Part shown: positions 23,140-63,834 of the stretch, one piece after another | Layout: every line of letters starts with the position of its first letter | Position numbering within the stretch: position 1 is the first letter of the stretch | Source: Escherichia coli | Lineage (GTDB): Bacteria; Pseudomonadota; Gammaproteobacteria; Enterobacterales; Enterobacteriaceae | Direction: 5' to 3' (one strand) | DNA length: 64,000 bases | Assembly (NCBI RefSeq): GCF_001677475.2 | Contig: NZ_CP015229.1 | Translations under genes and position numbers: made by a program | Notes under the pieces: generated by a model | Seen by the model: the letters and a program-made list of their open reading frames with translations, nothing else | Databases searched by the model: none | What the model was told of the DNA's origin: nothing

Positions 23140-23155
23140 ACGCAAACGATTACCT
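23140..23155. promoter_or_regulatory. PurR-box-like operator in glyA upstream region
   Basis: ACGCAAACGATTACCT resembles the PurR box ACGCAAACGTTTTCNT. Confidence 0.4.
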
Positions 23156-24982: not shown

Positions 24983-26317
24983 TCATTCCTTGAAATCGTT
25001 TGCATCCAGCTCGTGTCGGGAAAGCAGTTTATAAAATTCTGTCCGGTTGCGCCCCGCCATTCTCGCCGCGTGGGTGACGTTGCCTTTGGTGATTTGCAGC
25101 AGCTTACGCAAATAATTGAGTTCAAACTGATTACGTGCCTCAACAAAGGTTGGCAGCGCCGTATTTTCACCCTCCAGCGCCTGCTCCACCAGCGCATCAC
25201 TAATCACCGGAGATGAGGTCAGCGCCACGCACTGTTCAATCACGTTGACCAACTGGCGCACATTACCCGGCCAGCTCGCGGTCATCAGGCGTTTCATCGC
25301 ATCGGTAGAGAATGCGCGGACAAACGGTTTATGTCGCTCTGCCGCCTGGCGCAACAGGTGATTTGCCAGTAGCGGAATGTCTTCTGTGCGCTCTGCCAGA
25401 GCCGGAATTTTCAGGCTGACAACGTTGAGGCGGTAATAGAGATCTTCACGGAATTCCCCGCGCGCCATCGCTTTTGGCAGGTCGCGGTGAGTGGCGGAAA
25501 TAATCCGCACGTCGATATCAATATCGCGGTTACTGCCCAGCGGGCGCACTTTACGCTCCTGCAACACGCGCAGCAGTTTGACCTGCAACGGTGTGGGCAT
25601 ATCGCCAATCTCATCGAGAAATAGCGTACCGCCTTCCGCCGCCTGGAATAAACCTTCGCGATTGCTGACAGCACCAGTAAACGCGCCACGCGCATGACCA
25701 AACAGCTCCGACTCCAGCAATTGCTCGGGCAATGCGCCACAGTTAATAGCAATAAATGGTTTGCTGTTGCGCGGGCTGGCGTTGTGGATAGCCTGGGCGA
25801 AAATCTCTTTCCCGGTGCCGCTCTGGCCATTAATCAGCACGCTGACGTCTGATTGCGCCACCAGCCGCGCCTGTTCCAGCAAACGCAGCATCAGCGGGCT
25901 GCGGGTGACAATCGCCTCGCGCCAGCGTTCGTCGGTAGCAGGCGCGGATTGTTCCAGCGCATCGTCAATTGCCTGATATAGCGCGTCTTTATCGACAGGC
26001 TTGGTGAGGAAACTAAAAACGCCCTGCTGTGTTGCAGCAACGGCATCGGGGATAGAACCATGCGCAGTAAGAATAATTACTGGCATTCCAGGCTGCACTT
26101 TCTGGATTTCAGCAAACAGCTGCATACCGTCCATTTCATCCATCCGCAGGTCGCTGATGACTAAATCTACTTTTTCGCGATTCAGTACCCGTAATCCTTC
26201 AGCGCCACTCTCCGCCGTGACCACGCTGTAGCCTTCGCTGGTCAGGCGCAGGCCAAGCAGTTTCAGCAATCCCGGATCGTCATCGACCAATAATAAATGC
26301 GCAGGTTTATGGCTCAT
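24983..26317 (-). CDS. glrR: Sigma54-dependent response regulator GlrR (YfhA/QseF)
   Basis: ORF trimmed to [14 protein letters not shown]... (444 aa); receiver domain, AAA+ sigma54-activator domain with GAFTGA, C-terminal HTH. Confidence 0.9.
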
Positions 26318-28669: not shown

Positions 28670-28853
28670 CAACAAAGCCGGGAATTACCCGGCTTTGTTA
28701 TGGAATAAGGCGGTGCCTAACTCGACGTTTCGCCCGATGGTTGATATAGCTACGCTGATATCAGAAGTTGGACGGCAGGCACCTTGTTGTGCGTCATTCG
28801 AATTTTATGTAGCACGTCCCGAAGGGGCTGACATAAGTCGGTGAATGAGCCAC
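28670..28853 (-). ncRNA. glmY: GlmY small RNA
   Basis: Minus-strand read AGUGGCUCAUUCACCGACUUAUGUCAGCCCCUUCGGGACGUGC... ending in terminator hairpin GCCGGGUAAUUCCCGGC plus U-tract; recognised as GlmY. Confidence 0.8.
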
Positions 28854-28865
28854 TGCTTACTATTA

Positions 28866-29187: not shown

Positions 29188-32100
29188 TTACCCCAACTGC
29201 TTACGTGCATTGCGGAAAATGCGCATCCATGGGCCATCCTCGCCCCAGTTTTCCGGATGCCAGGAGTTGCTGACAGTACGGAAAACACGTTCCGGGTGCG
29301 GCATCATAATGGTGACTCGACCGCTTTCAGTCGTGACCGCCGTAATACCGTTCGGAGAACCGTTCGGGTTAGCCGGGTAGGTTTCAGTGACTTTGCCGAA
29401 GTTATCGACATAGCGCAGTGCCACCAGCCCTTTGCTTTCCAGTGCCGCCAGATGCGCCGCATCACGCACTTCCACGCGCCCTTCACCATGAGAGACAGCA
29501 ATCGGCATTTGCGAGCCCACCATCCCCTGCAACAGCAGCGACGGGCTTTGGGTCACTTCAACCAGGCTGAAACGCGCTTCAAAGCGATCGGAGGTATTGC
29601 GCACAAAACGTGGCCACAACTCACTACCTGGGATCAGTTCACGCAGATTAGACATCATCTGGCAACCGTTACATACCCCCAGCGCCAGCGTTTGCGAACG
29701 GTGGAAGAAGGTTGCAAACTCATCGCGTACACGGTCATTGAACAGGATAGACTTCGCCCAACCTTCACCGGCACCCAGCACATCACCGTAGGAGAAACCA
29801 CCGCACGCGACCAGGGCGTGGAAATCCTCCAGTCCCGTGCGTCCAGTCAGCAGGTCGCTCATATGCACGTCGATAGCATCAAAGCCCGCACGGTGGAAAG
29901 CTGCCGCCATTTCAACATGCGAGTTCACGCCCTGCTCACGCAGTACGGCAACTTTCGGACGTGCGCCAGTGGCAATATACGGTGCTGCCACATCTTCGTT
30001 GATATCGAACGACAGTTTTACATTCAGGCCCGGATCGGCGTCGTTAGATTTCGCCTGATGCTCCTGATCGGCACACTCCGGGTTGTCACGCAGGCGCTGC
30101 ATCTGCCAGGTAGTTTCTGCCCACCAGACACGCAACGTAGTGCGGCTTTCGCTGAATACAGTCTGCCCGTTGGCGGTAATCACAAAACGGTCACCGGAAA
30201 CCGCCTGGCCAACATAATGGACGCAATCAGCAAGCCCATGCTTTGCCAGTACCGCTTCAACTGCTTCACGGTCAGCGGCTCGAACCTGAATCACCGCCCC
30301 CAGTTCTTCGTTAAACAGCGCCGCCAGGCGATCGTCACCCAGTGTGGCGATATTCGCTTCAATGCCGCAATGACCGGCAAACGCCATTTCCGCCAGCGTT
30401 ACCAGCAGGCCGCCATCAGAGCGGTCGTGATACGCCAGCAGCTTACGCTGTGCAACCAGCGCCTGAATCGCGTCATAGAAGCCTTTCAGTTGCGCGACGT
30501 CGCGTACATCTGCCGGTTTGTCGCCAAGCTGACGATAAACCTGCGCCAGCGCCGTTGCGCCCAGCGCGTTATTGCCTTTGCCCAAATCAATCAGCAGCAG
30601 TGCGTTATCTTCGGTAGAAAGCTGCGGCGTGATGGTGTGACGTACATCTTCCACGCGGGCAAATGCGGAAATCACCAGCGACAGCGGCGACGTCATTTCG
30701 CGCTCTTCGTTACCTTCCTGCCAGCGGGTTTTCATCGACATAGAGTCTTTACCCACCGGGATCGTCAGGCCCAGCGCCGGACAAAGCTCTTCGCCCACAG
30801 CTTTAACGGCTTCATACAGGCCCGCATCTTCGCCTGGATGACCTGCCGCTGCCATCCAGTTCGCGGAAAGTTTAATGCGTTTGATATCGCCAATCTGTGT
30901 TGCGGCAATATTGGTTAACGCTTCACCGACCGCCAGACGGGCAGATGCGGCGAAATCCAGCAGCGCAACCGGCGCACGCTCGCCAATTGCCATCGCTTCG
31001 CCGTAGTAGCTATCGAGGCTGGCGGTAGTGACCGCGCAGTTAGCGACCGGCACCTGCCACGGACCAACCATCTGATCGCGCGCCACCATGCCGGTTACGC
31101 TGCGGTCACCGATGGTCACCAGGAAAGTTTTCTCTGCCACAGTCGGCAGATGCAGTACGCGTTTCACCGCGTCAGCAATGGTGATCCCTTCACGGGCCAG
31201 CGCATCGCCCTTCGCTTTCAGCGTTTGTACATCGCGGGTCATTTTCGGCGTTTTACCAAGCAGCACGTCCAGCGGCAGATCGATTGGCTGATTATCAAAA
31301 TGACGATCGTGCAGAGAAAGATGCAGTTCTTCAGTCGCTTCACCAATCACCGCGTAGGGTGCGCGTTCACGCTTACACAGTTCGTCAAACAGCGGTAACT
31401 GATCGGCAGCAACCGCCAGCACGTAGCGTTCCTGGGATTCGTTACACCAGATTTCCAGCGGGCTCATGCCCGGTTCGTCGCTCAGAATATCGCGCAGTTC
31501 GAATTTACCGCCGCGCCCGCCGTCGCTCACCAGTTCCGGCATGGCGTTAGAAAGACCGCCTGCGCCAACGTCGTGGATAAACAGGATTGGGTTGGCATCA
31601 CCAAGCTGCCAGCAACGGTCGATCACTTCCTGGCAGCGACGCTCCATCTCCGGGTTGTCGCGCTGTACGGAAGCAAAGTCGAGGTCCGCATCAGACTGAC
31701 CAGATGCCATGGAAGACGCCGCGCCGCCGCCAAGACCGATGTTCATTGCCGGGCCGCCGAGAACGACCAGCTTCGCACCAACGTTGATCTCGCCTTTTTG
31801 TACGTGATCGGCGCGAATGTTGCCGATCCCACCCGCCAGCATGATCGGTTTGTGATAACCGCGCAGCTCTTCGCCATTGTGGCTGTTCACTTTTTCTTCA
31901 TAAGTACGGAAGTAGCCGTTCAGTGCCGGGCGACCAAATTCGTTGTTAAACGCCGCGCCGCCCAGCGGGCCTTCGGTCATGATGTCCAGCGCGGTGACAA
32001 TGCGCTCAGGCTTACCGAAATCTTCTTCCCACGGCTGTTCAAAGCCCGGAATACGCAAGTTGGATACGGAGAAACCGACCAGACCGGCTTTCGGCTTTGC

Positions 32101-33075
32101 GCCACGCCCGGTGGCACCTTCATCGCGGATTTCACCGCCGGAACCGGTCGCCGCGCCCGGCCACGGAGAAATCGCCGTCGGGTGGTTGTGGGTTTCGACT
32201 TTCATCAGAATATGCGCCGGTTCCTGATGGAAATCGTAGCGGCCCGTTTCGTGGTCAGCAAAGTAGCGGCCCACTTCAGACCCTTCCATGACGGCGGCGT
32301 TATCTTTATAAGCAGAGAGAACGTGATCCGGCGTAGTTTCGAAGGTGTTTTTGATCATCTTGAACAGCGATTTCGGCTGCTGTTCACCGTCGATAATCCA
32401 GTCGGCGTTAAAAATTTTGTGGCGGCAGTGCTCAGAGTTCGCCTGAGCGAACATATACAGCTCAATGTCGTTCGGGTTACGACCAAGCTTTGTGAAAGCA
32501 TCCTGCAGATAGTCGATTTCATCTTCCGCCAATGCCAGGCCAAGGCGCAGGTTAGCGTCGATTAGCGCCTGACGGCCCTGCCCCAGCAAATCTACGCTGG
32601 TGACCGGAGTCGGTTGATGGTGTGCAAACAGCTGCTCTGCATCATCTAAAGCAAAAAAGACCGTTTCCATCATGCGGTCGTGCAGTTCAGCGGTAACCTG
32701 CTGCCATTGTTCATTGGTCAGCGTACCGGCTTCTATATAGTAAGCCACGCCGCGCTCAAGGCGGTTAACCTGTTGCAGCCCGCAGTTATGGGCAATATCG
32801 GTCGCTTTCGAAGACCAGGGAGAGATGGTGCCAGGACGCGGGGTCACCAGCAGGAGTTTGCCTTGCGGGGCGTGGCTGGCGAGTGCCGGGCCATATTTCA
32901 GCAGGCGTTCAAGTTGTGCGTGCTCATCATCGTTTAACGGCGCATTGAGGTCAGCAAAATGGACATACTCGGCGTAAATATTGTGAACCGGGAGCCTGGC
33001 AGCCTGAAAACGTGCCAGCAGTTTGTTGATTCGGAATGCCGACAATGCAGGCGAACCACGCAGAATTTCCATCAT
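29188..33075 (-). CDS. purL: Phosphoribosylformylglycinamidine synthase
   Basis: ORF trimmed to [20 protein letters not shown]... (1295 aa); FGAM synthase with C-terminal glutaminase domain. Confidence 0.95.
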
Positions 33076-33152
33076 AAGTCTCTCGTCTTCTAAGCTTTCG
33101 GTGTACCCAAGGGGGGGGAAACGGGCGTCATTATAAAGAATCTGATGCGCTG

Positions 33153-33168
33153 ACGAAACCGTTTGCGT
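33153..33168. promoter_or_regulatory. PurR box upstream of purL
   Basis: ACGAAACCGTTTGCGT (reverse complement ACGCAAACGGTTTCGT) is a near-perfect 16-bp PurR palindrome. Confidence 0.55.
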
Positions 33169-33333
33169 GGAAATAAAATCACCATCGAGAATTAGCAACG
33201 CGTGCCGCCAATGGCTGTAATAAGTTGCCATCTGGCGCAGGTTTACGCAAAATGCCGCTCATTTATGAGTAAACCTTTCACTATTATTACGTTTTTTCAA
33301 GCTGGGACGCGCACGACACAGAGAATTAACTAA

Positions 33334-35435
<2,102 letters not shown>

Positions 35436-38052: not shown

Positions 38053-38128
38053 CGTTGGAATCGTGTGCTGCACAAAATTAAAGTTGTAAAGTGAAAACCC
38101 CCGTTCCTTACCAGTTCGGGGGTTTTAC
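38053..38128 (+). ncRNA. ohsC: Candidate OhsC antisense sRNA (antitoxin of shoB)
   Basis: Plus-strand TTGGAATCGTGTGCTGCAC (38055-38073) matches plus-strand 37806-37824 in the shoB 5' leader at 18 of 19 positions, so a plus-strand transcript would base-pair with the minus-strand shoB mRNA; CATAAT -10-like hexamer at 38041-38046; hairpin at 38094-38126. Boundaries inferred. Confidence 0.45.
38094..38126. terminator. Bidirectional terminator hairpin (acpS operon end and candidate ohsC end)
   Basis: AAAACCCCCG-loop-CGGGGGTTTT with A-tract and T-tract flanks. Confidence 0.6.
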
Positions 38129-38151
38129 TTTATAAAGAGAACGGTATTTTT

Positions 38152-40134: not shown

Positions 40135-41747
<1,613 letters not shown>

Positions 41748-41945
41748 TCAGCACACGAAACAGACCTGATATACATGGCTCTGCTAACTGCTTCGCTGCA
41801 GTTTCAGTTTAGCGGTATATGGGGACCAACGCTGTTTCGTGTGCCGTGGCAACCTGGAGGTGCCAACCTTAAACTTCGGGGGAATATTCTATACACAACG
41901 ACGGGGGATGTCGTTAGCCACGGGAGATTTATCTCATAAATAATT

Positions 41946-42978: not shown

Positions 42979-44778
<1,800 letters not shown>

Positions 44779-44975
44779 AAAGTATGATTATTGTGCCTTA
44801 ATGCCCGGTTAACCAGGCTTTTAGAAGTCGCTGTTCTGAGCTTAACGTCTGTATTAATAGAAACGCCGCATTCTACACTACAACATTGAGGCGAGGAAAT
44901 GTTCATACCGTATGGATTGTGGTATCTGGAAACGTCCTCGCATTTGTTATGCAAAATGCAACAAAGCCAGTGAAA

Positions 44976-45455
44976 TCACTGGCTCGCGTCTTCCGAAGAT
45001 GTTTCAAATCGCACAAGGCCAGGCGGCAATGCCACGCTTAAGATGATCGGTTGCCATTCAGACCGGGCAGCAAACTTTCGAGAGCAGCCACGTGCAATCA
45101 GGAATCCACCAACGCCACCGAGAATCGCACCGCATAATGCTGCAATATCTGAAGCAAAGAGTAGCTGAAATAGTGAAGCGATGAGGAATAGTCCCACCAA
45201 CGGCGACATATAAACCAGTAATGCGGAGCTAAGCAGGCTGCCTTCGGCGATTCCTAATTCTACTTTTTGCCCCGGCACTAACGGCTCATCACAGGGTACG
45301 ACAATGGTATGCGTGGTTTGCGGGCCAAGTTTATTCAACACGCGGCTACCGCAACCGGCGCGTGAAGCGCAGCTGCTGCATGAGGCTTTAACATCACAAC
45401 TGACCAGCGCCTGCCCGTTTTGCCAGGAGACGACGGTAGCCCACTCTTTGATCAT
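44976..45455 (-). CDS. rseC: SoxR-reducing system protein RseC
   Basis: 159 aa. Confidence 0.9.
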   Translation of the reverse strand: MIKEWATVVSWQNGQALVSCDVKASCSSCASRAGCGSRVLNKLGPQTTHTIVVPCDEPLVPGQKVELGIAEGSLLSSALLVYMSPLVGLFLIASLFQLLFASDIAALCGAILGGVGGFLIARGCSRKFAARSEWQPIILSVALPPGLVRFETSSEDASQ

Positions 45456-46408
45456 TGCGCTGCCCCGAACTTAATATTCTCGGCAATGCGTTTCGCCGTT
45501 TGCGGCGGCAGTTCACCGACAATGGTGATTTCGGCGTTATCACGTACGCTTGTACTGACGGTTCTGCGTCCGGTGCGCAACATCTGATCGGTGCTCGATG
45601 GCGTAGCGCGGTTAACGTTTACCGAGAAGCTGAATAATCCGTCGGAATAGAGACGTGATTCGATAGGCATGTTGTCCATCGTCGGTAGCGGACGTCGACT
45701 ACTGGAAACTTCGCTAAAACCCTGTGGCAACCAGGTTGGCGTCCAGCTGAATTTAGCTTTTTCACCTACAGGAACAGAAAGCAACGGCGGCAAATTTGCC
45801 TTCGCCAGCGTCTGCATACTGCTGCTGATATCCTGATTGACGTTAAAAGCAATCACGCGAAATTGTTCCAGCGTTTCACCATCGCGATCAAGGAGATCAA
45901 CCCTCATCGGTAATTTCGATTCAGTGTCCATCCACACGATGTAGCTGTAGCGTGTACCATCTCGGGCAACCACGCGAATGACTTCGCAAAGACGATCAGC
46001 AATACGCGTGCGCCCGACGGAGATAAAGTCGTAGTAAGGAGAAAGGCGTTTGAAATCGGTATAGATGAGCGATGGCAGAGAATCAACAATGTAATCGCCA
46101 TTAAGCGTGAACGGTTCAAGTCCCGGTTCAAAATAGCTGATTTCATTGCCGCGCTGTACCACTTCCCGGCGCGGGCCATCCATTTGCAACAATTGTGCAA
46201 GAGGACGGTTATCGAGGCGTGCATGTCGATAACGCAGAGACTCAACACCCTGTTTATTGATGCTGATGAATGACAGCTCGTAATTCAGTGACTGACTGGC
46301 CAGGTTCATCTGCTGTAATAACGCCCCGGACGCGGGAGTGGCCGAGGCGTTAGCAGAGAATAACAGGCTACCTGTCACTAATGACATGGCAAACCAAAGT
46401 TGCTTCAT
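45452..46408 (-). CDS. rseB: Sigma-E regulatory protein RseB
   Basis: 318 aa with signal peptide. Confidence 0.92.
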   Translation of the reverse strand: MKQLWFAMSLVTGSLLFSANASATPASGALLQQMNLASQSLNYELSFISINKQGVESLRYRHARLDNRPLAQLLQMDGPRREVVQRGNEISYFEPGLEPFTLNGDYIVDSLPSLIYTDFKRLSPYYDFISVGRTRIADRLCEVIRVVARDGTRYSYIVWMDTESKLPMRVDLLDRDGETLEQFRVIAFNVNQDISSSMQTLAKANLPPLLSVPVGEKAKFSWTPTWLPQGFSEVSSSRRPLPTMDNMPIESRLYSDGLFSFSVNVNRATPSSTDQMLRTGRRTVSTSVRDNAEITIVGELPPQTAKRIAENIKFGAAQ

Positions 46409-63714: not shown

Positions 63715-63834
63715 ATGCCTGGCAGTTCCCTACTCTCGCATGGGGAGACCCCACACTACCATCGGCGCTACGGCGTTTCACTTCTGAGTTCGGCATGGGG
63801 TCAGGTGGGACCACCGCGCTACGGCCGCCAGGCA
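63715..63834 (-). rRNA. rrfG: 5S ribosomal RNA
   Basis: Minus-strand read UGCCUGGCGGCCGUAGCGCGGUGGUCCCACCUGACCCCAUGCCGAACUCAGAAGUGAAACGCCGUAGCGCCGAUGGUAGUGUGGGGUCUCCCCAUGCGAGAGUAGGGAACUGCCAGGCAU is the 120-nt E. coli 5S sequence; operon identity (rrnG) inferred from kgtP adjacency. Confidence 0.9.

Follow-up and report, generated by a model that had tools for sequence, protein, structure and literature searches.

The 258-bp region that separates the divergent genes purL and mltF of Escherichia coli carries a 16-bp motif resembling the operator of the purine repressor PurR. Its position raises the question of whether the repressor acts on purL only or also on mltF, which encodes a lytic transglycosylase, as proposed in the original prediction for this locus. 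We examined the motif in a 64-kb window (the whole stretch of DNA analysed, 64,000 nucleotides). The window belongs to the E. coli chromosome: 601 bp around the motif align with 5425 of 5426 complete genomes of this species at 95-100% identity, and the genes annotated beneath the alignment are purL and mltF. Alignment of the window with MG1655 revealed two differences over ~290 bp, and the MG1655 RefSeq annotation gives 33076-33333 as the exact bounds of the intergenic region.

The purL coding sequence occupies 29188-33075 on the minus strand, with its ATG at 33075 (1295 aa, protein start MMEILRG), and mltF occupies 33334-34890 on the plus strand, with a TTG start (518 aa); RefSeq MG1655 agrees with both. 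We also considered a 1347-aa open reading frame from 33231 as the purL start and ruled it out: RefSeq and all tblastn alignments begin at MMEILRG. The TTG start of mltF is conserved across Enterobacterales (26 of 28 aligned sequences) and its Shine-Dalgarno sequence is weak, which together suggest deliberately low translation of this lytic transglycosylase. We found no Rfam match within 32900-33500 at E-values up to 1 and no conserved RNA structure in the mltF leader, where RNAalifold gave zero pairs and the minimum free energy of the E. coli sequence had a z of +0.37. In the rest of the window, matches at the Rfam gathering score lie at 28707-28854, 38054-38131, 41663-41877, 44660-45491 and 63717-63832. 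They correspond, in this order, to the GlmY sRNA (just 3' of purL), OhsC, the rncO leader, the AsrC antisense RNA and a 5S rRNA, which is the content expected of this E. coli region.

The PurR box between purL and mltF

The motif, ACGAAACCGTTTGCGT on the plus strand, lies at 33153-33168 and occurs only once in the 64-kb window. On the purL (minus) strand it reads ACGCAAACGGTTTCGT and extends from about -31 to -46 relative to the purL transcription start. On one side 77 nt separate it from the purL ATG and on the other 165 nt from the mltF start, in agreement with the predicted placement of a 16-bp box within the divergent region and ~80 bp upstream of purL. Compared with the consensus ACGCAAACGTTTGCGT, the box has 14 matches and 2 mismatches over 16 positions on either strand, and the central CG is present. 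We scored it with a symmetrised weight matrix derived from the 27 other sites in Table 1 of Cho et al. 2011, its own site being left out, and obtained 20.5 bits. In 200 shuffles of the 64-kb window, the best score per shuffle averaged 13.1 bits (sd 1.9) and reached a maximum of 19.2, and the motif match is therefore far beyond chance. The 258-bp intergenic region contains no second PurR box, the next best score being 2.7 bits.

The site had been described as a near-perfect PurR palindrome. Its assignment to PurR is borne out by the 14/16 agreement, by the score and by the identity of the box with a site of Cho et al. 2011, but the palindrome was overstated. Only 6 of the 8 pairs are self-complementary, and symmetry of at least 6/8 is seen in 293 of the 63,985 16-mers of the window, so that about one is expected per intergenic region of this size. 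We thus rejected palindromic symmetry as evidence for the site; the motif match is the significant part. Judged by symmetry alone, the motif could pass for a functionless chance match. This explanation can be dismissed, given a score above the maximum of the shuffles, the invariance of the box across a bacterial order, its fixed register with the purL -10 element, and the published in vivo occupancy by PurR (PMC3159470).

It has been previously reported by Cho et al. 2011 (NAR 39:6456, PMC3159470) that ACGAAACCGTTTGCGT is the ChIP-chip PurR motif of the purL transcription unit (their Table 1), and the same study counts purL among the previously characterised PurR-binding promoters. The purL peak, which corresponds to ~33000-33225 in window coordinates, was seen only with added adenine (PMC3159470), and through its identity with this site the box has corepressor-dependent occupancy. 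The box is thus an already known purL operator of the PurR regulon, present in the ChIP-chip literature.

We followed the box through a comparative set of 80 loci, collected with the first 400 PurL residues as query and one genome per species, from Enterobacterales, Vibrionales, Aeromonadales, Alteromonadales, Pasteurellales and others. With a strong box defined as one of at least 16.9 bits upstream of purL, strong boxes were found in 34 Enterobacterales, 12 Vibrionaceae and 4 Pasteurellaceae loci. The 34 Enterobacterales boxes are invariant or differ at one position, nearly all of them reading ACGCAAACGGTTTCGT, with a reduced insect symbiont as the sole exception in the order. Of 5425 E. coli genomes, 5397 agree at every base of the 60 bp that comprise the purL -10 element, the box and an adjoining A+T-rich block. 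The neighbourhood follows a different pattern. In 69 of the 80 gammaproteobacterial loci, in several orders, mltF lies next to purL on its upstream side and is divergently transcribed, yet 23 loci (Shewanella, Pseudoalteromonas, Aeromonas and others) have the divergent pair and lack the box, while in Pasteurellaceae the box lies 64 nt from the purL start though mltF is not adjacent. These results demonstrate that the box tracks purL, and that the pairing of the two genes is independent of it.

The purL promoter and its repression

Read on the purL strand, the promoter region has the order GATTTTATTTCC, ACGCAAACGGTTTCGT, CAGCGCATCAGATTCTT, TATAAT, GACGCCC and G. The TATAAT hexamer (33130-33135, minus strand) can be read directly from the DNA, coincides with the published sigma-70 -10 element and is invariant across Enterobacterales. 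The -35 position is TTTCGT (33153-33158, minus strand), a poor match to TTGACA; it is situated wholly within the PurR box, 17 bp upstream of the -10 element in 28 of 28 taxa. In the supplement of Mendoza-Vargas et al. 2009 (PMC2760140), the purL transcript of MG1655 starts at -46 from the ATG and has the sigma-70 -10 sequence 'TTTATAAT'. The leader in the window has one extra G relative to MG1655, and transfer by alignment therefore places the start at about 33122 on the minus strand, within 1 nt.

The resulting 5' leader (33076-33121, minus strand) contains a C8 run together with the Shine-Dalgarno region. The run, G8 on the plus strand at 33111-33118 and located at about +4 to +11 of the transcript, is G7 in MG1655 and in E. 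albertii, and the G-rich block that adjoins it is conserved across Enterobacterales. Together with the GC-rich discriminator GACGCCC, the G8 run and its G-rich block might have a role in the control of purL by the stringent response or the initiating nucleotide.

Alignment of 28 Enterobacterales intergenic sequences resolved a series of conserved islands, namely the purL start and ribosome-binding region, the G-rich block, the purL -10 element (33130-33135), the box (33153-33167), GTTGC (33224-33228), GCAAAATGC (33247-33255) and the mltF start region. The G-rich island lies just downstream of the purL -10 element, over the start site and the first leader bases. Distances were taken on the ungapped sequences of these 28 regions. 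The interval between the purL -10 element and the box is 17 bp in all 28, and the distance from the purL ATG to the -10 element varies between genera from 47 to 101 nt.

Next to the box on its upstream side is the A+T-rich block ATTTTATTTCC (purL strand; 33169-33179, minus strand), at -57 to -47 from the purL start. It is conserved as GAAATAAAAT in 10 of 12 Enterobacteriaceae-like sequences, among which the bases adjoining it diverge. The block sits where a distal UP-element subsite would be expected, and it is possibly such a subsite of the purL promoter. The same bases on the plus strand, GGAAATAAAAT, double as the -10 element of a promoter-like sequence directed towards mltF (P1, below), and they are conserved solely in Enterobacteriaceae proper.

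PurR is a dimeric LacI-family repressor that lacks the LacI tetramerisation domain and acts through occlusion or as a roadblock; neither DNA looping nor activation is known for this protein. Derepression of purL on loss of PurR was reportedly the subject of E. coli genetics by Meng et al. and by He et al. in 1990. The box covers the purL -35 position and starts 17 bp upstream of TATAAT, a placement suited to blocking RNA polymerase, and from it we infer repression by occlusion of the -35 contacts. When hypoxanthine or guanine is plentiful, a PurR dimer with its corepressor would occupy 33153-33168, and with the six promoter-proximal bases of the box serving as the purL -35 position, the bound repressor would exclude RNA polymerase and keep purL, the gene for FGAM synthetase, repressed. 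When purines are scarce, PurR would dissociate and purL would be transcribed from about 33122. This agrees with the mechanism given in a review (PMC10912719), in which the corepressors are hypoxanthine and guanine and RNA polymerase is blocked by a PurR dimer bound to the palindromic PUR box. In RNA-seq of a purR deletion of Yersinia pestis, where purL has the same box, purL transcripts rose by a log2 of 1.90 at 26 C and 2.83 at 37 C (3.7- to 7-fold).

Promoter candidates of mltF and the reach of PurR

Among the supplementary data of Kim 2012, Conway 2014, Mendoza-Vargas 2009 and Yan 2018 we found no start site for mltF (yfhD), and our assignment of an mltF promoter is a prediction from consensus matching and phylogenetic footprinting. 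A promoter scan returned two promoter-like sequences on the plus strand, each agreeing with the sigma-70 consensus at 9 of 12 positions. The one nearer to mltF, P2 (33225-33253, plus strand), has the form TTGCCA-17-CAAAAT with a predicted start near 33260, and it has no overlap with the box. Its elements GTTGC and GCAAAATGC are invariant or nearly so across Enterobacterales, the spacer between them is 17 bp wherever the anchors are unambiguous, and the distance from its -10 element to the TTG start is 77-85. With both hexamers and the 17-bp spacer conserved throughout the order, P2 is the best candidate for the mltF promoter. The -35 element of P2 begins 56 bp beyond the box, the centre of which falls near -100 of this promoter. 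For a repressor known for occlusion and roadblock, such a position is not expected to have a direct effect on P2. mltF would thus have its own sigma-70 promoter, back to back with that of purL, and would be transcribed from it without direct PurR control.

The second sequence, P1 (CTGACG-18-TAAAAT; 33150-33179, plus strand), overlaps the box and is weakly conserved; a transcript from it would start near 33186. It is the sole route by which PurR could directly occlude mltF transcription. If mltF of E. coli were at least partly transcribed from P1, the box would cover the -35 element and spacer of that promoter, and PurR would repress both genes from one operator. The consensus score of P1, which equals that of P2, and the conservation of its TAAAAT block in Enterobacteriaceae proper speak for this explanation, as does a Tractor_DB analysis (PMC2329645) that includes yfhD in its computed PurR regulon. 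However, E. albertii, Citrobacter and Enterobacter already have a degraded -35 element, CCGACG, at P1, and outside Enterobacteriaceae the -10 element of P1 is lost, whereas P2 is invariant across the order. The A+T-rich block, moreover, can equally well be a UP-like element belonging to purL, at -57 to -47. Cho et al. 2011 assigned their peak to purL only, even though uncertain divergent pairs receive both names, separated by a slash, in the same study (yfgO/yfgC, ppiA/tsgA and others; PMC3159470).

Indirect transcriptome evidence points in the same direction. In a motif-scan table for Y. pestis 201, purL and mltF are both entered with the same box (ACGCAAACGGTTTC). Nevertheless, mltF was not differentially expressed in the purR deletion: it appears in neither of the two complete differential-expression tables, which reach down to a log2 of 0.43, and the locus tags adjoining purL are likewise missing from both. 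For E. coli, the passage of Sastry 2019 that describes the PurR-1 iModulon names add, ydhC and cvpA as members from outside the pathway, and mltF is not named in that passage. In this literature, then, we saw no response of mltF to purR or purines, and of the two candidate promoters P1 alone overlaps the box, the conserved P2 lying clear of it. Repression of both genes from the one operator is, in our view, quite unlikely.

The spacing of the two promoters led to a further explanation. The interval between the box and the mltF -35 element (33169-33224) keeps a length of 54-57 bp in the 28 Enterobacterales, with its sequence mostly unconserved, unlike the purL leader, the length of which varies by more than 50 nt. 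Such a constant 54-57 bp could reflect some coupling of the two promoters. Switching of purL, 137 bp away, might alter local negative supercoiling or crowd RNA polymerase and so have a modest effect on mltF, and the arrangement might be kept for that effect; the divergent order of the two genes in 69 of the 80 loci would be in keeping with this. The Y. pestis data argue otherwise, since a 3.7- to 7-fold rise of purL left mltF below a threshold that admits changes of a log2 of ~0.43. A simpler explanation of the fixed spacing is likely: with ~60 bp of upstream contacts for each of the two promoters, their contact zones would almost adjoin, with only ~17 free bases left between them. Finally, the synteny persists in lineages that lack the box, so the pairing is maintained by something other than PurR. 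We regard indirect coupling as very unlikely, and even less probable than repression through P1.

The 56 bp also contain a marbox-like sequence, GCGGCACGCGTTGCTAATT (33190-33208, minus strand), with 3 mismatches and ~60 bp upstream of the predicted mltF start. A scan of the window with the degenerate Mar/Sox/Rob consensus gave 128 matches against 134 expected and was not above chance, so the sequence is at most a hint of Rob control. In the literature, yfhD, which is mltF, has been reported to be Rob-regulated (Bennik 2000, in the form in which PMC6331797 cites it) and is placed in a Rob-associated module in an older analysis of the E. coli regulatory network (PMC544888).

Taken together, promoter geometry, the single box, the phylogenetic pattern and the transcriptome evidence from Y. 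pestis and from the iModulon passage disfavour PurR control of mltF, and the predicted influence of the repressor on an mltF promoter is not supported. We consider it highly probable that the purL promoter has this motif as its only PurR operator, that the operator works by occluding the -35 contacts, and that mltF is not directly controlled by PurR. That the PurR status of the cell reaches mltF at all, whether by occlusion of P1 as a minor, E. coli-specific promoter or by coupling of the rigidly spaced promoters, seems improbable to us. If it did, either route would tie the turnover of peptidoglycan by a lytic transglycosylase to purine supply, and could help to explain why purL and mltF are paired across several gammaproteobacterial orders.

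Comparison with other PurR operators and assignments

The suggestion that PurR might control mltF is not new: a computed assignment preceded it. Table 2 of the Tractor_DB analysis (PMC2329645) gives yfhD a score of 0.42, which is also the score of purL, and the equal values suggest that one site between the genes was assigned to both flanking neighbours. This is the same idea as that of the original prediction, namely that a common upstream region implies common control; it is a computational prediction, for which we found no experimental support. The negative outcome for mltF means that sharing an intergenic region with purL does not place this gene under PurR, and at least one computed regulon, which assigns the site automatically to both sides, is probably in error on this point. 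Beyond correct annotation the importance of this result is small, as the locus represents a textbook example of a repressor and its operator in the purine regulon of E. coli. The comparison does provide a map of both promoters, with the UP-like block, the -35 position inside the operator, the -10 element and the start of purL, and the -35 element, -10 element and TTG start of mltF. It also brings out the unusually rigid spacing between the two.

A similar arrangement is found elsewhere in the window. A strong PurR box, ACGCAAACGATTACCT, lies at 23140-23155 in the divergent region of glyA and hmp. Its opposite strand corresponds to the glyA entry in Table 1 of Cho et al. 2011 (PMC3159470). The box differs from the purL box in its target gene and resembles it in lying in a region common to two divergent genes, of which only the one related to one-carbon or purine metabolism is a recognised PurR target. 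A weaker PurR-like box, ATGCAAACGATTTCAA (13.5 bits; 24990-25005, minus strand), lies where glrR ends (3'), and the glnB ATG (24921) follows 68 nt downstream. Binding of PurR at glnB is known in vitro, as Cho et al. 2011 (PMC3159470) remark, but was missed by their ChIP.

The geometry of the purL operator in Vibrionaceae (L040 and L053-L079 of the comparative set) differs from that in Enterobacterales. In these loci the box is ~36 nt upstream of the purL TATAAT and just upstream of a -35 element, TTACAT, and not on it. An element similar to GTGTTACRTCAC is also conserved there, between the box and the -35 element, and an A-tract precedes the box.

In E. coli itself, the purL box is one of the PUR boxes, alongside those of purF, purMN, purHD, purEK and purT. 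It shares with them the 16-bp motif, the central CG and the overlap with the -35 element of a purine biosynthesis promoter, as well as in vivo occupancy that depends on adenine or hypoxanthine and derepression of the target in purR mutants. The purL box departs from the PUR consensus by a G at position 10 and a T at position 13 (purL strand), both of which are themselves conserved throughout Enterobacterales, and in all else it does not differ substantively from the other boxes.
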